Source: a virus (Duplodnaviria > Caudoviricetes). Taken from it: 64,000 nt of DNA. The DNA lies in the IMG/VR virus record IMGVR_UViG_3300046528_000065, positions 1 to 64,000 of that record; one strand, 5' to 3'. Below the pieces are notes generated by a model, which did not search any database, had not been told where the DNA came from, and was given only the letters and a program-made list of their open reading frames with translations. Both the position numbers and the translations under genes were made by a program. Below, in pieces: positions 3,027 through 48,478 of the stretch (the stretch's first letter is position 1; every line of letters starts with the position of its first letter).

Positions 3027-3600
3027 GCGTCAACCCTTCAACAACAGCTTTACATATTCCGAGAACTTCTTCATCTGTCATTTCTCCTCTCATCAAATTT
3101 ACTTGCCAAAGTACGATTCTCACATTATTCATTGTGTACCCTTTGGTTGAATCCATTCTATCAATGCTCGGCGCGAAAGGATTCTTATCGTACTTCGGAT
3201 GTGTATTGAAGTCGAAAGGTATTCCTGTTATCTCGCAAACACCTTTTAAAAGCCTATCTTCGATCCAATCTGCGGTGATGTCGAATTCGTTATACTGAGA
3301 AGATCGTCTTTCAGCACTCTTGAATAAAGTTTTTGCACGTCCACGAATACTTCCGTAGAACTTTTCGCTGCGCCGAGCAGCGGCCTCAACTTTGTCAGGA
3401 TCACTCATGTACTGCTTTTGTCGCAGCTTACGCTTCGTTTTGTACTCTGGATTTTCAGCGTATCTTACACGATTAATTTCTTTTGTGCACGACTTACATT
3501 TAGAGTCTCTCCGTTCAACACCATCTTTTGTGGATATTACGTAGAACTCTTCTGAACACAACTCTTTACCACACGTCCTACAAACTTTTGTTTCACACAT
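3004..3600 (-). CDS. free-standing HNH/beta-beta-alpha-Me homing-type endonuclease with Zn ribbons
   Basis: CRTC...CKSC; CEITG; SIDRMDSTKGYTMNNVRIV...VN. Confidence 0.75.
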   Translation of the reverse strand: MCETKVCRTCGKELCSEEFYVISTKDGVERRDSKCKSCTKEINRVRYAENPEYKTKRKLRQKQYMSDPDKVEAAARRSEKFYGSIRGRAKTLFKSAERRSSQYNEFDITADWIEDRLLKGVCEITGIPFDFNTHPKYDKNPFAPSIDRMDSTKGYTMNNVRIVLWQVNLMRGEMTDEEVLGICKAVVEGLTHESQMDF

Positions 3601-3680
3601 TTAGTCATATCTTTCACCCTCCTATTGGTTAATAAATATTGTTCCGTATTATCCAGCAATACCAGCCGCAATAAAGCCCA

Positions 3681-3854
3681 TTAGCATAGGCCAAGCAATC
3701 GCAACAGCCACCCTACGTCATGATCCCAAGGAATACTCGTCAGAACGTGTCCTGTGAAGAACAGCCAGATTCCATCTACGAGCAGCAATACCCAAGGCCC
3801 GAAGGTGAAAACTACCAGGAGTGCTACGCCAATGCTACGCAGTGCGTTAGCCAT
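3681..3854 (-). CDS. small membrane protein
   Basis: Hydrophobic stretches; GGAGGG RBS before MANAL. Confidence 0.55.
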   Translation of the reverse strand: MANALRSIGVALLVVFTFGPWVLLLVDGIWLFFTGHVLTSIPWDHDVGWLLRLLGLC

Positions 3855-4168
3855 CAGCAATCCCTCCAAAGTTCCTTATACTCCACTTCCACCATACCGT
3901 GCAGCTTCTGAAACAACTCCTCTGGCGAGATGGCCTGAAATTCTTGATAAGCTTTCCATTCAAAGCTTTCTTGGCAGTTTGGCGTGCGGGAGTAGTCGTA
4001 GCCAATCTCAGTATTGAACGTATCCCGCACCTTAATTAACTCTGCCCGCCAATCTTTATAAAACTGATCCCACTCTTTCTCGTCAACATCATGATCACAC
4101 AGATACATGCCGCGAACTCCGTAATCCGAATAGCTACCCTGCGAAAACATAAAGAAATGTTGCTTCAT
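3854..4168 (-). CDS. hypothetical protein
   Basis: ORF track; ATGA overlap with upstream gene. Confidence 0.75.
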   Translation of the reverse strand: MKQHFFMFSQGSYSDYGVRGMYLCDHDVDEKEWDQFYKDWRAELIKVRDTFNTEIGYDYSRTPNCQESFEWKAYQEFQAISPEELFQKLHGMVEVEYKELWRDC

Positions 4169-4551
4169 TTTGCTTCCTCCAGCTTCGCCAGAAATTCCTC
4201 ACCACTTCCCGTCCAAACATAACCCTCATCCTGTGCAGAAGCGGCCTGTTGCAGCCAGAAAGTGTCCTCAACAGAGGAGAACGACTCAATCGCCTGCGCA
4301 TGCCCCAACATCAGCTTCAGCGCCTTCTGAGCATTTTCGAGATTTGCAATCTTCACTTTCAGCTTGCGAATATATGGCGTGTAGACGGCTGCTTGTCCTT
4401 CGTAATGGGCTTTGACGCTCTCGGATACAGCAATGTCCACCATACGATTGAATGACTGGCGCGCTGCCCTCAGAGTGCGATATTCCGAGTAGAGCTTGGT
4501 GAGGACGCCCGCTTGGGATTTCAACACTTGCTGGATTTGTGATGCTTTCAT
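4165..4551 (-). CDS. hypothetical coiled-coil protein
   Basis: Start moved to MKASQIQQ (AAAGGA RBS, ATGA overlap). Confidence 0.7.
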   Translation of the reverse strand: MKASQIQQVLKSQAGVLTKLYSEYRTLRAARQSFNRMVDIAVSESVKAHYEGQAAVYTPYIRKLKVKIANLENAQKALKLMLGHAQAIESFSSVEDTFWLQQAASAQDEGYVWTGSGEEFLAKLEEAK

Positions 4552-16504: not shown

Positions 16505-17314
16505 ATGCTGAAGCAATATGTCGTTAGATTAGCGCCGATCACCCACTTGCCCATCATCGTGGACGCAAATTCCCTGGATGCGGGCCGTTTGAAAGCTGTG
16601 ATCGCTGATAAGCCTCAAGAAATTGGCATTGACTACTTCCGAGCTAGTGAGCCTGTCGATCTGGAATACGCCCACAAGATCGTGCAGGAATACGCAAAGC
16701 GTGCGAAGATTGGCGAGACGGAGTTTTCTGTGCGGGCACGCCTCCCAAAATCCTTCACTAAGCGCAAGGCCAACGATTCTAACTTAGTTCTTGCTAAATC
16801 GGATGAGAAGCTTGCACAAGCGAAGCCCGGTGATGCCCCGAAAGAGCAGAGCCTGGAAGAAAAAGTTAAAGAATTTCACGAGTCTGAGTTGCGTATCGCT
16901 CGTGAGAAGAAGGCCGCCAAGGAAGGCAAGAAGCAAGAAGATGTAGACGCTGCGCTCAAGCCCCTAGAAGAACTCGCAGCAGAGCACGGTAAGAAAACTG
17001 CTTCAAAGAGCGAAGCCATCCCTACTACCACGGGAGCCTCTTCTGCCAATCCTGAAGGCGCTGTTGTGAAGCGTGACGAGGTTGAGAAGAAGCGCACCAA
17101 GCGTGCTTACACAAAATCTTCCGAGAAGGAGCGGAGTGCCAAATCCAAAGCTGCATACGACAGGTACGTTAAAGAGTTGGCTGCTGCTGCGGTCCAATCA
17201 CCAACGATCATGGAGCCGGTTGCCCACACTGCGACGCCTCAACAGTATGATGCTGCGGTCCTTGAATTAGCAAGTGCTCTGGCAAAGATTCTGAAGGGTG
17301 GTGGAATTCTCTGA
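16505..17314 (+). CDS. hypothetical K/A/E-rich early protein
   Basis: 269-aa ORF with AAGGA RBS; first gene of the plus-strand block. Confidence 0.8.
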   Translation: MLKQYVVRLAPITHLPIIVDANSLDAGRLKAVIADKPQEIGIDYFRASEPVDLEYAHKIVQEYAKRAKIGETEFSVRARLPKSFTKRKANDSNLVLAKSDEKLAQAKPGDAPKEQSLEEKVKEFHESELRIAREKKAAKEGKKQEDVDAALKPLEELAAEHGKKTASKSEAIPTTTGASSANPEGAVVKRDEVEKKRTKRAYTKSSEKERSAKSKAAYDRYVKELAAAAVQSPTIMEPVAHTATPQQYDAAVLELASALAKILKGGGIL

Positions 17315-18422
17315 TATCTGCTGCGGCAGCCCCTACAGGCGTGGGGGCTGAATTAACTGAGTGGTCCCTCACTAACTCGAAACCTCGTGCACATCTGGCG
17401 TTTCGGCCTATTAATTTGCCAACTACATCAGGACTAATCCCCCATTTGTCGCGCAACTCGACCGATGATCCAGTGTAGAGTGTGCCGTCATCTATTTTTC
17501 GGATAGTCACCACGAATCCCTTCTGCCTGCGTATCAATCCTGGGTCATCGGCGGGTGTAGAATCCATGCAGAACCCTTTATAGGTCTTACAGCTCCCTTT
17601 TATAAGTCCCTCTATCGAAGATATGCTAAGGTTGTATTCTTCCTTCAGTTGCTTTGTCGTGCGCTCTAGAACCTCGCCTGTCTCAATAATTCTAAACTTG
17701 TGTCTCCGGATATTCGGCCTAGGCTTGCACGTAAAATCTGTAGTGGCGTTCAGACAAAAACCACTGGTCGTCCTTACTTTACCCCGCACTAACGCGCCAA
17801 CCCTGCCTGATGTGGTTCCCAAGTGTGCCACCAACTCACTCTTTGTAAAATTGAAAACCTCCCCTGTGGATAGGCATCTAAACTCATACTTCGTCTTGTC
17901 CCTCGACATGTACGGCTGGTCTTTATATGCCCTTGCGTGATTTGTTAAATCCGTCTCGGCTAGGGCGATACCTTTAGAAATCTGGCATATCCTCCTGACT
18001 AAGTTACTGGAGTCTGCAAGAGTAAGGCCATGCCGTGCACGGAGTTCCTTCTGCGTACAATCGAATGTCTCACCAGTTTCCACAACTACAAACTTATGGA
18101 TAACTGTGGAAGTGGTGAACTTTCTTATTTCCTTCGACCACTGCTCCCTCACTAGTGAGAACATCCTACTATTGAGCTTGCGGCCTGAACTAGTCATGGT
18201 CATTGCCTGCGCGGCGAACCACAACTCACCACCGTAAACTTGTGCCAAAAGGAGGTGGGCGAGGAAATGTTCTCTGGCCGTCAAATAGATCAGGTTTGAT
18301 TTCTCGTTACTGCCGCCCATGCATTTTGCAAGAATGTGATGTTCTTCGTAGTACACTCCCTCCAGCTTCGGCCTCATCTTGCGCGATTCTATCAAGTCAT
18401 CATAGATTTTCTTGTAGTCCAT
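17208..18422 (-). CDS. HNH homing endonuclease (MobE-like) with repeated DNA-binding modules
   Basis: EEHHILAKCMGGSNEKSNLIYLTAREHFLAH, then four repeats of F-x(3-4)-TGE-x-F...L... Confidence 0.85.
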   Translation of the reverse strand: MDYKKIYDDLIESRKMRPKLEGVYYEEHHILAKCMGGSNEKSNLIYLTAREHFLAHLLLAQVYGGELWFAAQAMTMTSSGRKLNSRMFSLVREQWSKEIRKFTTSTVIHKFVVVETGETFDCTQKELRARHGLTLADSSNLVRRICQISKGIALAETDLTNHARAYKDQPYMSRDKTKYEFRCLSTGEVFNFTKSELVAHLGTTSGRVGALVRGKVRTTSGFCLNATTDFTCKPRPNIRRHKFRIIETGEVLERTTKQLKEEYNLSISSIEGLIKGSCKTYKGFCMDSTPADDPGLIRRQKGFVVTIRKIDDGTLYTGSSVELRDKWGISPDVVGKLIGRNARCARGFELVRDHSVNSAPTPVGAAAADIREFHHPSESLPEHLLIQGPQHHTVEASQCGQPAP

Positions 18423-23379: not shown

Positions 23380-23408
23380 TTGACAAGCGGCTCGGCAGGG
23401 CTTATTCT
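23380..23408 (+). promoter_or_regulatory. sigma70-like promoter
   Basis: TTGACA-N17-TATTCT. Confidence 0.7.
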
Positions 23409-23799
23409 GAACATGTCAACAAACAAAAGGAGAATGGAAATGAAACGTACTAGCAAGCCTGAGTACACCGATGAAGACGAACTGTCTGTGCCCTCATTAA
23501 CACCAGATGAGCGTAAATGGATCGAAGCCGCTGCCAAACTTTTCGACAAGATGCCTGAGCGTCTACAGTTGATGGAGGGTGGTGACAGCGTTTCAGTGGT
23601 AGATGCAGCAGGAGCGAAACTCTCGAATTGTGCCGATGGCGATGCTCGGCGCGACGGGATAGTATTGGCTGATCTGCCGTCCGCAATGTTCAAAGTTTTC
23701 GGTGTATCTTGCTAATCACCTCAACAAAGGCCCAAAATGAAAATCATAGGAGCGAAGCGAGTATGAACATGTCAACAAACAAAAGGGGAATGGAAATGA
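23408..23799 (+). repeat. 36-bp direct repeat pair covering leader, RBS and start
   Basis: TGAACATGTCAACAAACAAAAGG(A/G)GAATGGAAATGA at 23408-23443 and 23764-23799; one mismatch. Confidence 0.9.
23434..23715 (+). CDS. hypothetical protein
   Basis: Start moved after AGGAG. Confidence 0.7.
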   Translation: MEMKRTSKPEYTDEDELSVPSLTPDERKWIEAAAKLFDKMPERLQLMEGGDSVSVVDAAGAKLSNCADGDARRDGIVLADLPSAMFKVFGVSC

Positions 23800-24938: not shown

Positions 24939-25093
24939 TTGATACTGGCACGCTAATCTGTGCAATCGAAGCCGCTACAGAAACGATTGAGATTGACCGT
25001 TACGGAAATAAAGTGGAAATTAATGTGGTGAATGCGGCTAAGCTTGTCGAGGAACTGTACAGGATTAAATACAATCAGGAGAGGTTTGAATGA
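24935..25093 (+). CDS. hypothetical protein (52 aa)
   Basis: Hand translation MIDTGTLICAIEAATETIEID...; ATGA overlaps at both ends. Confidence 0.6.
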   Translation: MIDTGTLICAIEAATETIEIDRYGNKVEINVVNAAKLVEELYRIKYNQERFE

Positions 25094-25290
25094 TTACACG
25101 CAAACAAGCCGACAATATTATTGGGATGAACGCACAAACTGTAAACACGGATTTTAGCGGTGACGCTACCCAACAGTTGCTAGAGGAAATCAAGGCACAC
25201 GCTGAACGAGGTATCAACTGGCCCGGACACAGCACGTTCCACATTGAACGTATCGTACAAATTCTGAAAGATGCAAAGGTGATTGAATGA
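25090..25290 (+). CDS. hypothetical protein
   Basis: Starts MITRKQADNI. Confidence 0.7.
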   Translation: MITRKQADNIIGMNAQTVNTDFSGDATQQLLEEIKAHAERGINWPGHSTFHIERIVQILKDAKVIE

Positions 25291-25475
25291 TTACACGCAA
25301 ACAAGCTGACAACATCATGTGGCTCGCCTCGCAATGGGCCTCTGCACAGAGCTTAGCTGACGCCTATAAATTCAATTTGGAGGCTCCTCCTGGCGAATAT
25401 GTCATTGCGACGGAAGCTGCTGCGAAGGCGTTTGATATGTTTAGGGATGCGCTAAATAAAGTGACGGAGGGGTGA
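25287..25475 (+). CDS. hypothetical protein
   Basis: Starts MITRKQADNI. Confidence 0.7.
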   Translation: MITRKQADNIMWLASQWASAQSLADAYKFNLEAPPGEYVIATEAAAKAFDMFRDALNKVTEG

Positions 25476-34994: not shown

Positions 34995-35031
34995 TAGTCA
35001 TCGGCTCTACAAACCCTCTAGGAGAAACAAC

Positions 35032-35223
35032 ATGAAAAAGTTTATCGTCCGCGTGAACAACGGTTTTAACTTTGAGTACCATTCAATGGTAGAGGCTGAA
35101 ACTGTCTTTAAAGCAAGGAAAGAGTTCTTGACGAAACACAAGGGTGACTGGTTTGATACGCCAGGAGGGGTTAAACTTTCTGAAGTGAAAGAGGACAACA
35201 ATGTACGACACGATAGCGTATGA
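35032..35223 (+). CDS. hypothetical protein
   Basis: Start MKKFIVRV after AGGAG. Confidence 0.7.
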   Translation: MKKFIVRVNNGFNFEYHSMVEAETVFKARKEFLTKHKGDWFDTPGGVKLSEVKEDNNVRHDSV

Positions 35224-35347
35224 GGAAGGCAGAAGGGCATATGAGAACACTACTCCGTGCCCTTATATAGAAGACTCGCCTTCCTACTATGATTGGTGGG
35301 AAGGCTTCAGAGATGCAGAGCAGGACGCCGAGGAAGATGCTGAATGA
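35201..35347 (+). CDS. Rmf-like small protein (48 aa)
   Basis: Hand translation MYDTIAYEEGRRAYENTTPCPYIEDSPSYYDWWEGFRDAEQDAEEDAE. Confidence 0.7.
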   Translation: MYDTIAYEEGRRAYENTTPCPYIEDSPSYYDWWEGFRDAEQDAEEDAE

Positions 35348-35565
35348 AGACAATCATCCATGTAAATCAACATGTTATAAAAGCTAACAGGAAGAATGAC
35401 GAGAACAACCCCGTATTGACAGTGAAGACATACAAGAGCAATACATACGCTCACGCTGTAGAGATTGAAGGGCCCAGCAGGATTGTATATAGCCCTAACA
35501 AGCCTCTCTCATGTGGCGCTCATGTGTGGATTGAGACGGAAGGGAATGTCACTGTTGTGGTGTAA
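35344..35565 (+). CDS. conserved phage hypothetical protein
   Basis: KTIIHVNQHVIKAN...LSCGAHVWIET. Confidence 0.8.
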   Translation: MKTIIHVNQHVIKANRKNDENNPVLTVKTYKSNTYAHAVEIEGPSRIVYSPNKPLSCGAHVWIETEGNVTVVV

Positions 35566-35589
35566 TGATTGTATGCAGAATCAACACCA

Positions 35590-35816
35590 AAGAGGCCACC
35601 TAAACGGTGGCTTTCTCTATTGTGCAAAGCCTTATTCAGCGTGATTTAAAGGGCCTAGAAGGCGTCTGTTATGTGTGTTGGTAGGGACGTAGCCAGGAGG
35701 CTGTACAAGGGCAGAGAATAAGGAAGCCCCGTTCATCCGTATTGACTACAGGGGCAAAGTGTTTTTGTGATGATGTGCAAAGCAGCATACAAGAGGCCCG
35801 CTAACGCGGGCTTTCT
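35590..35816 (+). terminator. tandem intrinsic terminators ending the early block
   Basis: AGAGGCCACC-TAAAC-GGTGGCTTTCT (about 35591-35617) and AGAGGCCCGC-TAAC-GCGGGCTTTCT (35792-35816). Confidence 0.65.
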
Positions 35817-36719
35817 GCTCTCTATTCCCTATTGAATAACCCACTTCTGAGCCTGTTCTAAGGCTCTACAGCATGCCTACACATGCATTGTGCTATGGCC
35901 CTACATGGCATGGCTTCAACAGGCTAGAGAGGCGCTATATAGGCCACATACGGCAGGCTATCAATTAGGCTCAAAGCTAGACTACATGCGGCATACAAGC
36001 ATTCTGTACAGAGTGCTATCTAATGGACTGTCCATCATAGTGGACAAGCTTTCCAGTATAGTGGATTGTCTGTATTGCATGCTTTGGCGTTAGACCACAA
36101 TTCGTCCCTTCTTCGTTTCTTCGCCACCCTTGGCACCAACGAGGCACATTTAATAGGGACAGAGTGGTGCTATCGAGTGCCTATCAAATGAACATATGAA
36201 CACCTATTCACATGTTGAAATGTGGCGAAGGGACGATCTACAGCAGCAGGACAGCGCCTGGAGGGGAGCTAGGGAGGCGAGAGGGGGAGGCTATGCAGGA
36301 CGCAGGCAGAGGGATGGCAAGAGCAGCGATCCGGTAGGATCAATGCCAGGGAGGGCGCTATAGCTGGCTAGGAGGGACCTAGGCGGGGCAAGGAAGGGGC
36401 ACAGAGGGGGAATGGGGGGCAAGCTGGCAGGGAGGGACGCTGGAGGGATGGCTAGAGTGCGACGAGGAATGGGCGCTAGGAGTAGGCTATTCGGCTGCTC
36501 ATGCACAAATCGATACGGGCATTTGAACTTGTTTATGAGTCCGCATGCCATATTTTTTAGGCAGGGAAGGGGTGGATATTGGGCATCACCGGGCACTGTT
36601 AGACCGCACAGGAGCCATTGCCCCGAAACAAGGAAGTAGTCCCCTCGATATATTTACCAGATGGCCTGGAAGCAACTCCACGAAGAGGGTCACTTCTCAA
36701 AAATTTTTATAGCCAAAAT

Positions 36720-36757
36720 GCAAAAATGGAGGTTGCCTCAAAAAGAAGCACCTCCAC
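36720..36757 (-). terminator. intrinsic terminator downstream of the recombinase
   Basis: Minus strand TGGAGGTGCTTC-TTTTT-GAGGCAACCTCCA followed by TTTTT. Confidence 0.6.
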
Positions 36758-36839
36758 CTGGATATTTTCATGCTGCTATTTAGAAATATGTCTTTCTAAT
36801 CAGCACACTACAAAGATTTTCTAAAGTTGTTTCTAGGAC

Positions 36840-37502
36840 TCACCTCCACCTGGAAATCACGCGGCAAACGCTAGTTGCGCTCCATTCCCCACCGCGAGCT
36901 GTCGGGGTGCATTGCTCATTCAGTTCCTGAGCGATTTCCGCATACGTCATCCCGCACGTAACCATGCGCTCAATAGGTGGCCTCACTTTGGCAGCGAACC
37001 TATCAGCCTTCTCTTTGAGCACCGAGACAGCCTTCTGGCGTGCTTCATCCAGATTGGTACGGTTGCCCAGGATGACACCACGCGCTTTAGCTGCTGCCAA
37101 CCCTGCCTTGGTCCTCACCCCAATCATCTCACGTTCTTTGGAAGCCAAGCCGCTGAAAATGATTTCCACAAATGGGTCGGCATCCTCACCCTGCTCGATT
37201 GCCACCACCTTCTTTGACTTCATCAGCGAGCGGGAGATATCGAAGTCACGACTGGCCCTGTCGCTCTTGGTGACAACCACTTGGGCCTTCATCTTCTTTG
37301 CCATCGCCAGGGCAGTGGACATGACAGGACGATCCTTTAACGGAGTTGCACCAGAAATCACCTCGTCCATGATAGTGATTAAGTTATACCCATGATGCTT
37401 TGCCCAGCGCTCGATTTCTGCACGCTGACTATCGAGGCCATTTTTGGACAGGCCCTGCTCACGGGTGCTGACGCGACAAACTCCGATGAAAGATTTGGTC
37501 AT
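36840..37502 (-). CDS. small serine recombinase (resolvase/invertase family) with C-terminal HTH-type domain
   Basis: Catalytic CRVST; DEVISG; VVTKSDRASR; arm EREMIGVRTKAGLAAAKARG. Confidence 0.92.
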   Translation of the reverse strand: MTKSFIGVCRVSTREQGLSKNGLDSQRAEIERWAKHHGYNLITIMDEVISGATPLKDRPVMSTALAMAKKMKAQVVVTKSDRASRDFDISRSLMKSKKVVAIEQGEDADPFVEIIFSGLASKEREMIGVRTKAGLAAAKARGVILGNRTNLDEARQKAVSVLKEKADRFAAKVRPPIERMVTCGMTYAEIAQELNEQCTPTARGGEWSATSVCRVISRWR

Positions 37503-37534
37503 GGTGTGGCTCCTAGATACGTTTAGATATGTGT

Positions 37535-37563
37535 ATGGTACACAAATGAAAACGCTATGTCAA
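37535..37563 (-). promoter_or_regulatory. sigma70-like promoter of the recombinase
   Basis: TTGACA-N17-TACCAT. Confidence 0.75.
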
Positions 37564-38022
37564 CAGCGATTCACCATGAGTCTTCAACAAACCTTCGGCC
37601 CTTGCCCACACGTTCTGCACGGACGACGTGTACCACTTGGCGTCTCGGTAAGTCTTTACGTCATTGTTGTTAAGATGTTCCGCCAACTGGTAGAGCGTCA
37701 TACCTTGATCCCTGAGTGGCTTAATAATCTTGTAAATCTTCAAGGCAAATTCATTTGCAGCCTTAACCATAGATTCCCCACCCTTCTTTGCGGCTTCAGC
37801 GAGGTTAGTCTGGTTCCCGAGTACAACTCCCCTTTCCTTGGCCCTGCGAAGACCTTCTTTGGTAAGCTCGGCATGATTGTCTCTACGCTTCCAGCCACCT
37901 TCGTGAACACGGTCGTGGCAGCAGCCACACAGAGGGACTGTTTGTGTGCCACCTAAACTTTGAGGAATTACGTGGTGATCTTCTGTTGCAGGCTTACCGC
38001 ATTCAAAACATTTCTTATCCAT
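37555..38022 (-). CDS. HNH endonuclease fused to a serine-recombinase arm and DNA-binding domain
   Basis: CFEC...DHHVIP...GG...LCGCCHDRVH; C-terminal ~90 aa aligns without gaps to the adjacent recombinase. Start moved to MDKKCF. Confidence 0.85.
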   Translation of the reverse strand: MDKKCFECGKPATEDHHVIPQSLGGTQTVPLCGCCHDRVHEGGWKRRDNHAELTKEGLRRAKERGVVLGNQTNLAEAAKKGGESMVKAANEFALKIYKIIKPLRDQGMTLYQLAEHLNNNDVKTYRDAKWYTSSVQNVWARAEGLLKTHGESLLT

Positions 38023-38197
38023 GATAGCCTTTCTTATATTATACAAGCCAAACAATACGTTTAGCCTTCTTAATACAACAATGTTATCACGGAAAGTTTT
38101 GTTGTCAAATAACAAGCCCTGTCAACTAACAGCACAAACAAAAAGGCCCGCCAACAGAGAACATTCCCGTTCCCCGCCAACAGGCCCTTCTCACCAG

Positions 38198-38392
38198 TCA
38201 CTTGCTCGCAACACCGTCACCGAAGCCTTCATCATACCCGTCGCTCCAGCTTGTATCGACATCCCTGTAGTATGCCACCTCCTCACGAAGCTCTTGCAGC
38301 AAATCCTCAGCATCCTCCCAGCGCACGTAGCGCCCATAAGAAACAGGAAGCTCTCCAGCATCATTGATTTCGTATCGTTGAATGTCAGTCAT
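38198..38392 (-). CDS. acidic small protein, I[QK]RY paralog family
   Basis: IQRY...GRYVRWED. Confidence 0.7.
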   Translation of the reverse strand: MTDIQRYEINDAGELPVSYGRYVRWEDAEDLLQELREEVAYYRDVDTSWSDGYDEGFGDGVASK

Positions 38393-38403
38393 CGCATCAC
38401 CAA

Positions 38404-38601
38404 TCAATTAGCCGAATCGAGCGCAGCATCCCAACGCTCGTCAAACTCCAACTTAGAAACAATCCCTGGATTCTCAAGCTCCGCAATCCTAGCCTTCAGT
38501 TCCCTCACCTCCTCCAAATAATCTCCATGAGCCACATACTGCCCATTCTTGGCTTCCTCCAGTCCGAGGTAACCGACCTTGTATCGTTTAATCTCAGTCA
38601 T
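38404..38601 (-). CDS. small coiled-coil protein, I[QK]RY paralog family
   Basis: IKRYKVGYLGLEEAKNGQYVAHGDY. Confidence 0.75.
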   Translation of the reverse strand: MTEIKRYKVGYLGLEEAKNGQYVAHGDYLEEVRELKARIAELENPGIVSKLEFDERWDAALDSAN

Positions 38602-38824
38602 GTTTACTCCCATTAGCATAACCTTCTTCCCAACCCTTATCGTAAGCATCTTCCCTGGCAATCGCAATGTCATCCTTCAGCTTCAAGATTTCCACTTTCA
38701 TGTCTTGGACAACTTTCAAGTGGTCGTCATACAGCACATAGTCGCCCCACTCGCTCTCTTCTATGCCATAGTCTCTGTCATCTTCGTAACGCTGAATTGT
38801 TTGCTCGCAAACGCTCTCACTCAT
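38594..38824 (-). CDS. acidic small protein, I[QK]RY paralog family
   Basis: IQRY...GDYVLYDDH. Confidence 0.75.
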   Translation of the reverse strand: MSESVCEQTIQRYEDDRDYGIEESEWGDYVLYDDHLKVVQDMKVEILKLKDDIAIAREDAYDKGWEEGYANGSKHD

Positions 38825-39018
38825 AAGCCCTCCTTCTTCCGAAAAGAAAACGTAGTCTCCCAGTGCTTGTAGTCACAGGTCTCCACAAGCTCGTAGTCGG
38901 AAATATTCTTATCTTGATTCTGTAAAATCCACTGTGCAGCGAAGCATTCTTTGTTCTGTGCCAGTGTACGTTGTGCTAGTAGGACGATTTCTGTAATGCT
39001 AGTCATCACAGCCTCCAC
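38821..39018 (-). CDS. hypothetical protein
   Basis: ORF track; packed. Confidence 0.6.
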   Translation of the reverse strand: MEAVMTSITEIVLLAQRTLAQNKECFAAQWILQNQDKNISDYELVETCDYKHWETTFSFRKKEGL

Positions 39019-39269
39019 GAATAATTAGAGTCCCTGCCATCGCTATATCCGCTACTACGTGCATTCTGCAACTCTTGTGCATGCAGCCTCTTGATGCGCT
39101 CAATCATGCCGATATAATCCGAGAACGCCACCCACTCCACACCATCACGCATATATCGCTGAATCTGATATGGGTCATTAGCCTTCTTGTCAGCCTCGCG
39201 CTGTTCAGCCTGCTTCTTGAACCTTGCCATCAGTTCTTCAAATTCTTTAGTCCCCTCTTTATACATCAA
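39006..39269 (-). CDS. small protein, I[QK]RY paralog family (divergent)
   Basis: IQRYMRDGVEWVAFSDY. Confidence 0.65.
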   Translation of the reverse strand: MMYKEGTKEFEELMARFKKQAEQREADKKANDPYQIQRYMRDGVEWVAFSDYIGMIERIKRLHAQELQNARSSGYSDGRDSNYSWRL

Positions 39270-39835
39270 ATCACCTCCCTAAGTTTCTCCACCAATGACA
39301 GGCGTGCAACGCCTTGCATAACTTGCCCCCTAATCTCATCCTCCGTGTGCTCCCTATCTACCTTATCTTCAAACCGCTGCTTAAATCCCTTCGGCAGAAG
39401 AAGCTCGACATCCACGCCTAGCGTGACACCTGCCACAGCACCTGCAATGTCCACACCTGTCTGCCCTCCTGAACGAATTTGCTTCAGCGGGTAATACTCT
39501 CCCACTTGTGCGAGGATTTTGTAGACATACAAATTGGCTTCCTCTTGTGACATCTTCTTGTGCAGCGTGTAAATACCATTACCTGCCACGTTGATTGTTG
39601 CAGGGGCTTTACTCCCGTTCCTAGCGAGACGCTTAAATAGCAGCCGCGCATTCTCAATCCAAGGAAGCACAGGATCAAGCTTCAAATACTTCTCCCCAGC
39701 CGCCTTACGCGTCAGCTTCTCTCCGGCTGTACTATAATCGACAGCAATGGCAATTGTCACGTCGCCCTTTGCAGCATTGACGTATGTGCGAGGGGCGTAG
39801 CTGCTGCTTGTGTGTTCAAGGATGGTTAGTGTCAT
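39266..39835 (-). CDS. circularly permuted YpsA/SLOG-family (molybdenum-carrier-like) protein
   Basis: YAPRT..N....D.T...G.KLT; INVAGN; IRSGGQTGVDIAG located C-terminally. Confidence 0.7.
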   Translation of the reverse strand: MTLTILEHTSSSYAPRTYVNAAKGDVTIAIAVDYSTAGEKLTRKAAGEKYLKLDPVLPWIENARLLFKRLARNGSKAPATINVAGNGIYTLHKKMSQEEANLYVYKILAQVGEYYPLKQIRSGGQTGVDIAGAVAGVTLGVDVELLLPKGFKQRFEDKVDREHTEDEIRGQVMQGVARLSLVEKLREVI

Positions 39836-40041
39836 TAGTCGTCCTCTGCACTGTACGGACTGCGATCTTCGTCACCAAGATCGATTGAGAAAATAGACGA
39901 GTCATCAAGCCGCTCTTTTAACTCTTCAATTTCAGATTGAAGTTTCTTGACCTCTTGAACGTAGTCGCCATGCTGGACGAACCTCCCTCTTTTGGACTCC
40001 TCCAAACCGAGGTATCCCACATTGTAGCGTTTAATGTCCAT
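39835..40041 (-). CDS. small coiled-coil protein, I[QK]RY paralog family
   Basis: IKRYNVGYLGLEESKRGRFVQHGDY. Confidence 0.75.
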   Translation of the reverse strand: MDIKRYNVGYLGLEESKRGRFVQHGDYVQEVKKLQSEIEELKERLDDSSIFSIDLGDEDRSPYSAEDD

Positions 40042-45909: not shown

Positions 45910-47031
45910 ATGGCTGTCATTGAAGTTGGTAAGAAATTTGGGAAGCTCGAGGTTGTAGAGAAGGACGGTTTTTGCAAAGCAGTCTGTTCGTGCGAGTGCG
46001 GCACTACGAAGGATTACACATATCACTCTCTGGTCTACGGCGGCAACACATGCTGTGGGTGTACTCATACAGGCAGAGCTGGCGTCAAGAAGAGTAATAG
46101 CCAAGCTATTAGGCTCTCGAAAGAGCTGCATGGCGAAGGCACTTATGGTTACAGCCGGTTCGTCTACACGCACGGTAAGGCCAAGGTTGAACTATTCTGT
46201 AATAAACACCAAGAGTACTTTTCAATCTCTGCAACACAACATCTAAGTCGAACGAGGAAGGGCGGCTGTCAGAAGTGTGCTGTTGGGCGCAGGGCAGACT
46301 TTCATCGGAGTAGTTTAGAAGACTTCGTTACAAAGTCCAAGACTGCACAAGAGTCTCTTGGAAGGTCTTTCGACTACTCCCGTGTCAAGTACGAGACAGC
46401 AAGAATTAAGGTAGAGATTGGGTGTAATGCCTGTGGTACATGGTTCTGGCAGACACCTCACAGCCACTCCATCGGCAAGGGCTGCACCAACTGCAAGAAT
46501 ATAAAGCTTGCCAGCGACCGTAAACACACGAAAGAACAGTTTGTAGATGAGGCCAGAAAAGTTGTTGGTGATAGGTATTGCTTCGACCTTGTGGAATATA
46601 AAAACGCGAGGACTTACGTGAATGTTATCTGCAATGACTGTGGAGAAACTTTCAAAAAGAAGCCGATGGAAATTCTAAACGGGCACGGTTGCAGGTGCCA
46701 CGCTGTACCGTGTGGGTACAAGAGCGCTGAACCTGGAAATCTGTACGTGCTAACTTGTGAAGGTATGACCAAAGTGGGCATTACTAATCTTAACCCACAC
46801 GACCGTGCAAAAACCGTCAGCAAATCATTTGGTAAAGACTTTGTAGTGCTCACGTATTTCACAATGGATGGGCAGGAGTGCACGGACCTCGAAACAACGC
46901 TATTACAGGAGCTCAGGAATGAATATGAGAGTCCTAGTGAGAAGTTCGACGGATACACTGAAACATTTTATTTCGTAGATAGACCCAAGTTGATCTGTCG
47001 AATTAAGGAGATACTGAATGACTCAAAATAA
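45910..47031 (+). CDS. homing endonuclease: Zn-ribbon (DUF723-like) repeats plus C-terminal GIY-YIG/T5orf172-like nuclease
   Basis: Repeats of F...Y..V.Y...CxxC; LYVL...KVGIT...R...E. Confidence 0.8.
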   Translation: MAVIEVGKKFGKLEVVEKDGFCKAVCSCECGTTKDYTYHSLVYGGNTCCGCTHTGRAGVKKSNSQAIRLSKELHGEGTYGYSRFVYTHGKAKVELFCNKHQEYFSISATQHLSRTRKGGCQKCAVGRRADFHRSSLEDFVTKSKTAQESLGRSFDYSRVKYETARIKVEIGCNACGTWFWQTPHSHSIGKGCTNCKNIKLASDRKHTKEQFVDEARKVVGDRYCFDLVEYKNARTYVNVICNDCGETFKKKPMEILNGHGCRCHAVPCGYKSAEPGNLYVLTCEGMTKVGITNLNPHDRAKTVSKSFGKDFVVLTYFTMDGQECTDLETTLLQELRNEYESPSEKFDGYTETFYFVDRPKLICRIKEILNDSK

Positions 47032-48478
47032 AAAAGAAAAAAAGGTCATTGGACCCAAGAGCGAAAAGCAACGAATGATCCTTCAGGATAATAGCACGGA
47101 TGTGCTATTATGTGGCGGGGGTGCCGGGGGCTCGAAAAGTTATACTTGCCTTTTGAAGGCACTCAAGTATGTCCAAGACCCTGCCGCACGCGTTTTGATC
47201 GTGAGGGAATCTTATCCCGTTTTAAAATTACCGGGCGGCCTCGTGGACGAATCCCAACGGATATACAGGGAGTTCGGTGCGGAATTTAAGATTCAGGCTT
47301 TAACCTGGGTTTTTAAAAACGGGGCTGAAATCAAGTTTTCCGCGATTCCACAGAACATTGAAGAGTGGCAGGGATTACAGGCTAGTCACATTTTAGTTGA
47401 CGAAGCGGCAAGTCAGACAGAGCACGTTATCCTCTTCTTGCTGAGCCGCCTCCGCAGCGGATCGTATAAAGGTCATATGAATTTGACCATGACATGCAAC
47501 CCGGATAGGAATAGTTTTCTGTATAACTGGCTTTGTGATTACTGCTTGGACCCAGAGACAGGTATTCCCGTGGAGGGGACTGAAGATATTGTCAGGTACT
47601 TCGTCAGTATTGATGGCGTTCTTAAGTGGGGAAACTCTAAGCAAGAATTGTACGATAAATACGGACAAGGGACGACTCTCGGAAAAGATTTTTTGCCAAA
47701 ATCGTTTAAATTTATTCCCCTCACCGTTTATGATAATCCGACGCTCCTAAAGAACAATCCAGATTATCTGGCGAACCTAATGGCACAGCCGCGAGTCAAC
47801 CAACAAAGATACCTCCACGGTAGTTGGACTGCTCGCCCTAGTACAAGCTCTTATTTTTCTAGAAGCTGGGTTGAATTCATCGATGCAGCACCTACAGAAG
47901 ATATTGTGGGGAGAGTGCGAAGCTACGATATCGCGGCAACAGAAAAATCTGAGCAAAATAAAGACCCCGACTACACAGCAGGCGTGAAAGTCTCGCGGGA
48001 TAAGCAGGGTGTGTACTATATTGAACACGCTAGGCGTTACCGTAAGAAGCCAGATGGTGTTTTGAAGGAGATTATCGCTACTGCAAAAGAAGATGGCCTA
48101 GACGTACCTGTAACGATCCCTCGTGATCCTGGGGCGGGCGGGGTTATCGCAAATCGATTCTTCGTATCGACCCTTACAGAGGCTGGTGTCACAGTCAAGT
48201 CCATCCAAACTTCGGGACACACCAGTAAGGTGAATGGATTCTTGCCATTCAGTGCATTGGCTGAGGCCGGTATGGTGAAGGTAGTGCGGGACACACCGAA
48301 TGACAGGTATTTGGATGACATGTTGATGGAGATGGAGTACTTCACCGGAGGCCGGAACGAGCACAATGACTTTTGTGACGCAATTTCAGCGGCGTTCTCT
48401 ACGTTGATGAAACAGAACACAATCCCAACCTTCTCCATCCCAACCTTCACAACATCATCACCAATCCCCTCCCTATAA
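47018..48478 (+). CDS. terL: terminase large subunit
   Basis: Walker A GGGAGGSKS; Walker B ILVDEA; TCNP; nuclease DIAAT...HNDFCDA. Confidence 0.93.
   Translation: MTQNKKEKKVIGPKSEKQRMILQDNSTDVLLCGGGAGGSKSYTCLLKALKYVQDPAARVLIVRESYPVLKLPGGLVDESQRIYREFGAEFKIQALTWVFKNGAEIKFSAIPQNIEEWQGLQASHILVDEAASQTEHVILFLLSRLRSGSYKGHMNLTMTCNPDRNSFLYNWLCDYCLDPETGIPVEGTEDIVRYFVSIDGVLKWGNSKQELYDKYGQGTTLGKDFLPKSFKFIPLTVYDNPTLLKNNPDYLANLMAQPRVNQQRYLHGSWTARPSTSSYFSRSWVEFIDAAPTEDIVGRVRSYDIAATEKSEQNKDPDYTAGVKVSRDKQGVYYIEHARRYRKKPDGVLKEIIATAKEDGLDVPVTIPRDPGAGGVIANRFFVSTLTEAGVTVKSIQTSGHTSKVNGFLPFSALAEAGMVKVVRDTPNDRYLDDMLMEMEYFTGGRNEHNDFCDAISAAFSTLMKQNTIPTFSIPTFTTSSPIPSL

Follow-up and report, generated by a model that had tools for sequence, protein, structure and literature searches.

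How do a recombinase and a nuclease, encoded side by side in a phage genome, come to carry the same type of DNA-binding domain? The question is raised by a 64,000-nt stretch of viral DNA (the window; Duplodnaviria, Caudoviricetes), which forms the first 64 kb of an 89,163-bp record rated as complete by CheckV (IMG/VR record IMGVR_UViG_3300046528_000065). A gene for a small serine recombinase (P0001) lies there directly downstream of a gene for a small HNH protein (P0002), and the C-terminal domains (CTDs) of the two proteins are homologous. A first-pass annotation of the window, which had given correct coordinates for both open reading frames (ORFs; minus strand), took them for a domain-swap pair addressing the same or a related DNA site. 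The comparisons set out here favour a different answer. P0002 is probably a free-standing, site-specific HNH endonuclease of the homing type, maintained under purifying selection, and its likeness to the neighbouring recombinase appears to date from the time, long ago, when the nuclease took its DNA-binding module from this recombinase subfamily. A local duplication does not account for it and neither, probably, does a target that the two proteins share today.

The homology itself is clear. BLASTP aligns residues 122-218 of P0001 with residues 45-141 of P0002 without a gap (38/97 identical, E 1e-17), bearing out an earlier hand count of 36/91, and in AlphaFold 2 (AF2) models of both proteins the helices of the shared part come in the same order, with like lengths after helix E (P0001: residues 110-140, corresponding to helix E, 151-182, 187-196 and 209-217; P0002: residues 50-63, 74-105, 110-119 and 132-149). 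As helix E of P0001 spans residues 110-140 and the homology starts at residue 122, the shared part begins inside helix E. What P0002 retains is the last ∼14-19 residues of this helix, which form its DNA-proximal end, plus arm and helix-turn-helix domain; it has lost the recombinase catalytic domain and that half of helix E, the first, which forms the dimer. P0002 has no match to PF00239, the recombinase catalytic domain with its nucleophilic Ser. This architecture supports the earlier view that an HNH domain has taken the place of the catalytic domain on a recombinase DNA-binding module. P0001 and P0002 have the same residue at only about 4 of 11 positions in the helix predicted to end the helix-turn-helix domain (hand count on the BLASTP alignment). 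Structure comparison gave little that is specific: Foldseek found nothing in the Protein Data Bank (PDB) at E<=0.001, with Bxb1 and McrA among the weak rows, and a wide VIA-align search returned only generic helix-turn-helix matches (best Z 6.6), its fold matches among recombinases (serine integrase, Z 4.9; Tn3 resolvase, Z 4.5) being weak and not distinctive.

The N-terminal part of P0002 has the hallmarks of a beta-beta-alpha-metal nuclease domain. In an alignment of 22 homologues, the motif CxxC...HH...CxxCH...H is invariant at C5, C8, H16, H17, C32, C35, H36 and H40, so that both CxxC pairs of the zinc site (C5/C8 and C32/C35) are kept throughout, while the CTD has one invariant column only. 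The AF2 model shows the expected fold, with strands at residues 14-18 and 27-31 followed by a helix at residues 33-40, in keeping with a His-Me finger nuclease, whose catalytic His ends the first strand and whose metal-ligand His or Asn lies in the helix. When a profile of the P0002 family is compared with the PDB, the best matches are the HNH domains of IscB (5.4e-5) and McrA (1.2e-4), over residues 3-44, and these share the CxxC, HH and CxxCH...H elements. Some homologues of P0002 have precomputed matches to PF01844 or PF14279, and NCBIfam holds no family matching P0002. Between relatives, the ratio of non-synonymous to synonymous substitution rates (dN/dS) of the gene is 0.04-0.15, which indicates strong purifying selection.

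The neighbouring P0001 is a serine recombinase with a full catalytic domain and helix E, as in Tn3/gamma-delta resolvase and the Hin/Gin invertases. It matches the Pfam Resolvase family PF00239 (5e-21, 75.8 bits, residues 6-143), PHROG 125 'DNA invertase' (1.4e-26) and the PF07508 'Recombinase' domain (22.7 bits; cut-off 21.1 bits). The catalytic residues R10, S12, Q16, R82, R85, E123 and R124 are kept throughout 17 relatives, and the gene is under strong purifying selection (dN/dS 0.02-0.08 between relatives). Both P0001 and P0002 have the arm, and their helix-turn-helix domain resembles the first part of PF07508, as found in large serine integrases; at ∼80 aa, this CTD is longer than the helix-turn-helix domain of Hin or the resolvases and much shorter than the full integrase recombinase domain. 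Unlike serine recombinases, P0002 cannot recombine DNA, because the catalytic domain and the half of helix E that forms the dimer or tetramer are absent.

The histories of the two genes are distinct. The CTD of an HNH protein is 28-42% identical to that of its own recombinase (40% in the window), within a matrix that ranges from 23 to 47% overall and in which the CTD of P0002 is 36-47% identical to the recombinases of other phages or to unrelated ones (38-47% for unrelated ones). The matrix has no diagonal signal: partner CTDs are no more alike than non-partner CTDs. In a maximum-likelihood tree, the CTD of P0002 falls in a supported clade of 17 HNH CTDs (95/87), which includes members from recombinase-less phages, and the recombinase CTDs fall in clades separate from it. 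Since the HNH CTD groups with those of recombinase-less phages, the fusion is old, not local. A recent local duplication of the CTD is rejected by the tree and the identity matrix. One related locus (L012) is incongruent on the tree, pairing a window-type HNH protein with a recombinase of the type seen in L005. The clearest case of separate descent is given by two related contigs, L009 and L010: their recombinase CTDs are identical and the recombinase genes differ by dN 0.01 and dS 0.43, whereas the HNH genes differ by dN 0.30 and dS 2.4. Nucleotide identity between the two contigs rises from 53-68% over the HNH gene to 89-96% over the recombinase gene, the step lying exactly at the junction. 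The HNH gene thus has a history that differs from that of its flanking genes. The idea of a local domain-swap pair aimed at one site, with DNA-binding domains that co-vary within pairs, finds no support in these comparisons; a motif that the two gene leaders have in common, described below, still speaks for a weak version of it.

The combination of an HNH domain with a recombinase-type CTD is a large, virus-only, uncharacterised family. A word-indexed search with P0002 yielded 43 relatives, mostly of 140-205 aa, and an exhaustive phmmer search yielded 2007 representative clusters at E<=1e-3, of which 546 reach E<=1e-10; the top 150 are for the most part proteins of 140-170 aa, matched over residues ∼4-141 as one stretch. 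In the ESM Atlas, the closest clusters have 100% viral members and bear PF01844 together with PF07508. A relative of P0002 is encoded in 81 IMG/VR stretches. A hidden Markov model (HMM) built from recombinase CTDs alone matches 55 of 79 HNH ORFs in viral loci, among them (at 1.8e-27) those of L017 and L018, whose records have no resolvase.

Members of this family mostly live without a recombinase next to them. A resolvase catalytic domain lies within 4 kb (<=4 kb) at only 16 of 80 HNH loci. Among 37 whole records that were searched for PF00239, the domain is absent from six that carry the fusion and are at least 90% complete, and in three further records the sole copy is ∼10 kb away. The reverse also holds: the recombinase subfamily of P0001 occupies at least 578 viral loci, and an HNH gene is nearby at only 6 of the best 80. 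The fusion is therefore widespread without a neighbouring recombinase, a finding that the first-pass annotation had named beforehand as speaking against a dedicated pair. The HNH protein is not an obligate partner of the recombinase, and the two neighbours are not a new two-protein system. Distant members of the HNH family have other neighbours: genes for helicases, exonucleases, methyltransferases, terminases and other homing endonucleases. This pattern matches the one described for phage homing endonuclease genes (HEGs) in PMC10448857.

Close relatives of the window, compared as contigs of 80-92 kb, show that the HNH gene occupies a variable slot. The HNH and recombinase genes stand in tandem in the window, L003/L011, L008-L010 and L015. 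In L005, L006/L013, L007/L014 and L012, the HNH gene converges with an inverted recombinase gene, 42-48% identical, which in the gene calls overlaps the 3' end of the HNH ORF. A third arrangement is found in L049, L039, L050, L052 and L053, where the protein next to the recombinase has the HNH domain and the helix-E remnant followed by an unrelated CTD of unknown family; in L049 this HNH gene (3929-4489) lies directly upstream of a gene for a 234-aa serine recombinase. The HNH gene is absent from L092/L097, L099, L100, L101 and L102, which keep the recombinase and the flanking upstream genes, and in L091 the HNH slot upstream of the recombinase is taken by a second, divergent serine recombinase of 206 aa (3302-3922; PF00239 at 4.5e-11, 22% identity to P0001). 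Presence and absence are thus polymorphic at one syntenic locus. The inverted form of the recombinase also occurs without an HNH gene, in L108. An invertible segment was considered and rejected: long inverted repeats are lacking in the 89-kb genome, and a 26-bp palindrome described below occurs there only once. As the inverted recombinases are, in addition, only 42-48% identical, the inversion is read as an old rearrangement, not a switch.

A homing-type nuclease is the favoured reading because a nuclease domain is joined to a DNA-binding module, the gene is present or absent at one locus, its history is separate from that of its surroundings, an exchange boundary is sharp and the neighbourhoods of distant members are rich in genes of DNA metabolism and in other HEGs. 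From these features we infer nuclease activity, site specificity and homing for P0002. The recombinase-derived module would dock on a specific DNA sequence in the manner of a recombinase subunit on its half-site. Given the position of the fusion point, docking would hold the HNH active site over the DNA roughly where the recombinase catalytic domain otherwise sits, and the DNA would be nicked or cut there. Recombination repair with a co-infecting relative may then copy the nuclease gene and its flanks. In the lineage of this phage, the nuclease gene would have settled directly upstream of the conserved small serine recombinase gene.

An enzyme of this architecture might instead serve in conflict, cleaving a specific sequence carried by competing phages, by satellites or by the host, with no copying of its own gene. 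The restriction of the family to viruses and the strength of purifying selection agree with such a role, and HEG-related DNA-binding domains take part in conflict between phages and satellites according to PMC10448857. However, homing predicts both the sporadic occurrence of the gene in one syntenic slot and the sharp mosaic boundary at its edge, and a conflict nuclease of this kind is considered distinctly unlikely.

Several observations weigh against the homing-type reading. One set concerns the nuclease domain, which the first-pass annotation had called complete. The metal-binding and histidine elements do stand, all of them invariant, but the central Asn of the H-N-H motif is not present: alignment with McrA and IscB places a 4-residue deletion at the Asn loop, so the domain is not complete in the textbook sense. 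P0002 taken alone also scores below the Pfam cut-offs (HNH_5: 19.4 against 27.5 bits; HNH: 17.9 against 21.4 bits). Both points are in keeping with a catalytically inactive protein in which the HNH/zinc module is structural and the retained DNA-contacting end of helix E and helix-turn-helix domain serve a repressor or a competitor that occupies recombinase sites. The conservation pattern points the other way: across 22 diverged homologues the HH pair, H36 and H40 never change, whereas the part that binds DNA is free to vary, and an inactive binder is disfavoured because selection for DNA binding alone predicts the opposite. Most of the family, moreover, has no recombinase to compete with, and we consider an inactive binder very unlikely. 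The missing Asn does not preclude activity, since other active His-Me enzymes likewise do without it. T28, close to the deleted Asn loop, is invariant among the 22 sequences.

The remaining points against homing concern the setting of the gene. Adjacency to the recombinase is conserved in at least ten related contigs and through three arrangements (the tandem one, the convergent one and the one in which the HNH protein has another tail); together with the strong purifying selection, this exceeds the needs of a purely selfish element. A search for family members in cultured phages found no full-length homologue (the tail of the HNH protein gp114 of PaBG is unrelated). Relatives are too diverged for an empty target site or insertion boundaries to be defined, the flanks of L015 and L092 being unalignable. 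Finally, a 10-bp motif, CTAAACGTAT, occurs only twice in the 89,163-bp genome, once in the leader of each of the two genes, which hints at co-regulation.

These leader motifs deserve a closer look. A shared leader word as long as CTAAACGTAT arose in only 10 of 2000 shuffles; the motif statistics are modest. Its core, TAAACG, lies 9-10 nt past the -10 box in both leaders of L008-L011. Three contigs without the HNH gene (L099, L100 and L102) have it in or near the recombinase promoter (in the spacer), and L096 has it twice; these counts are not independent, because the phages carrying TAAACG are related. Its role might be that of an operator or of a recombination core, or it might be left over from the arrival of the HNH gene as a cassette. 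Its restriction to the two leaders, the conserved adjacency and the purifying selection on both genes would fit a functional module in which, in this lineage, the HNH protein and the recombinase are co-regulated and act on the same or a related DNA element. Both promoters might be controlled by binding of the shared type of domain to an operator that contains TAAACG, or the nuclease might nick at the recombinase site and so start recombination, replication or genome processing. Yet partner CTDs are no closer to each other than to non-partners, L009 and L010 combine identical recombinase CTDs with diverged HNH CTDs, each gene is found without the other at the same locus, and the partners of the L049 type have no common CTD at all. 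The low identity of the predicted last helix is a further difficulty, and the motif evidence comes from five related phages. A functional module is considered rather unlikely.

The two copies of CTAAACGTAT are also direct repeats that bracket the HNH ORF. The HNH gene might on this account be a cassette between them, with TAAACG as the binding or crossover core of the recombinase subfamily and both proteins, the nuclease by way of its recombinase-derived arm, acting on the same element. The two might then have an autoregulatory operator in common, the recombinase might insert or excise the cassette, or the nuclease might home specifically into recombinase sites. A cassette of this sort seems unlikely.

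If P0002 is a homing-type nuclease, its nearest functional analogues would be the free-standing phage HNH homing endonucleases (I-HmuI type and the T4 Mob family), which are listed in HNH groups 1 and 2 in PMC5714182. As in these enzymes, a small HNH domain is combined with a modular DNA-binding region of predicted sequence specificity, and the gene, free-standing between conserved ones, occurs sporadically in relatives and is flanked by mosaic sequence. It differs from them in that its DNA-binding region is not made of NUMOD-type modules but was supplied by a serine recombinase (helix-E end, arm and helix-turn-helix domain), and in that the HNH domain is N-terminal and without the central Asn loop.

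A second parallel is offered by the T5orf172 HEGs, which share DNA-binding domains (CapR, RepA_N) with non-nuclease proteins (Barth, Dunham and Seed 2023, PMC10448857). Phage HEGs sit at boundaries of genetic exchange, according to the same source. P0002 resembles the T5orf172 genes in that it and a different DNA-binding protein bear homologous DNA-binding modules and that an exchange boundary lies at the nuclease gene. Unlike them, P0002 is of the HNH class and not T5orf172/GIY-YIG-like, its donor is a serine recombinase, and a gene of the donor type is often its immediate neighbour. The resemblance to IscB and McrA, in contrast, is confined to the HNH domain: IscB is an RNA-guided nuclease and McrA a modification-dependent restriction enzyme, the context of P0002 is unrelated to either, and neither shares its deletion in the Asn loop.

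Homing endonucleases recruit many kinds of DNA-binding modules. Full-text literature searches turned up no account of an HNH nuclease based on the arm of a serine recombinase, and a serine-recombinase module cut precisely inside helix E to become the targeting part of a homing nuclease is not described in the literature searched. The virus-restricted family amounts to hundreds of clusters at 50% identity. Its members, if active, would be compact (∼150 aa) site-specific nickases or nucleases with a targeting part that follows the well-studied geometry of half-site recognition by recombinases. They would then be relevant to the mosaicism of phage genomes and might provide a scaffold for engineering.

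Within its genome, the locus lies at the meeting point of two convergent transcription blocks, one of plus-strand genes that stops at 35565 and one on the minus strand that extends down to the recombinase stop codon (36840). The individual elements are collected in Table 1. The two genes are adjacent, as described earlier, and each has its own promoter-like site. The recombinase site proposed as a promoter does contain TTGACA-17-TACCAT, with 10 of 12 matches to the consensus, and has counterparts in L008-L011; such sites are, however, no commoner in this region than in shuffled sequence (3 vs 3.1). The hairpin and T-run downstream of the recombinase are conserved in an alignment of L008-L011.

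Table 1. Elements of the HNH/recombinase locus, with their positions in the window
Feature	Position	Strand	Basis
Terminator-like hairpin closing the upstream gene block before the HNH promoter	38143..38188	-	Scan
Promoter-like site upstream of the HNH gene, TTGACA-16-TAACAT with TG extension	38081..38108	-	Consensus match only
10-bp motif CTAAACGTAT, copy 1, HNH leader	38055..38064	-	Genome count
HNH protein gene (P0002), 155 aa, recombinase-type CTD	37555..38022, including stop	-	ORF list, family alignment
HNH (beta-beta-alpha-metal) domain, residues 1-44, CxxC...CxxC zinc site and HH pair	37891..38022	-	Alignment, profile, AF2
Recombinase-derived module of P0002, residues 45-141: C-terminal end of helix E, arm, helix-turn-helix domain	37600..37890	-	BLASTP, CTD HMM, AF2
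Promoter-like site upstream of the recombinase gene, overlapping the HNH stop codon	37535..37563	-	Consensus scan
10-bp motif CTAAACGTAT, copy 2, recombinase leader	37517..37526	-	Genome count
Small serine recombinase gene (P0001), 220 aa	36840..37502, including stop	-	ORF list, PF00239, PHROG 125
Residues 1-121 of P0001: catalytic domain and beginning of helix E; no counterpart in the HNH protein	37140..37502	-	PF00239, AF2 model
P0001 segment homologous to the HNH protein, residues 122-218	36849..37139	-	BLASTP, tblastx
Hairpin and T-run downstream of the recombinase, likely terminator	36720..36757	-	Read by eye; not listed by scan

Between the convergent blocks lies a 1.27-kb zone (35566-36839) with no convincing ORFs, which might act as an origin or as a site of packaging or recombination. 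If it held a terminus or packaging site, the adjacent HNH protein might assist the terminase at the genome ends, as in HK97-like cos phages. Against such a helper, the HNH gene is ∼9 kb from the large terminase gene (47018-48478) and absent from sister phages at the same locus, and a different HNH gene lies directly upstream of the terminase gene; a packaging role is extremely improbable.

Short blocks within the zone (∼36600, 36500-36540 and 36120-36140) are kept in L008-L011, as are repeated TCCA-N6-TGGA dyads at 36031-36065, and a purine-rich stretch with many G-runs extends over 36240-36480. An Rfam scan of 35000-38500 gave no match. At 36191-36216 there is a 26-bp near-palindrome, unique in the 89-kb genome, with two 12-bp arms and a 2-bp centre in the layout of an invertase crossover site. 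In L009 and L010 the near-palindrome persists with its centre changed, as part of an island of 96% identity whose flanks are 50-75% identical; it is absent from L011, L008 and all other relatives checked. As a crossover site of the recombinase it was rejected, because L011 lacks it despite a nearly identical recombinase.

The small paralogous genes that follow one another upstream of the HNH gene (38198-40041) vary in number and order among relatives, so the region adjoining the HNH slot is itself mosaic. The large terminase is 40% identical to its counterparts in PAK_P1-like Pseudomonas myoviruses, and a DNA-level search of cultured phages found no near match to the genome. Two further nucleases are encoded in the window: a 404-aa homing-endonuclease-like protein (17208-18422; PHROG 655) and, directly upstream of the large terminase gene, a 373-aa HNH endonuclease (45910-47031; PHROGs 681 and 559). 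Self-comparison of the genome revealed a tandem duplication of ∼375 bp per unit at 69233-70332 of the record, outside the window, with units 65-67% identical. Two pairs of 36-nt direct repeats were also noted: one at 23408-23443 and 23764-23799 (97% identical), its first copy beginning at the end of a promoter-like site (23380-23408), and the other at 25086-25121 and 25283-25318 (92% identical).

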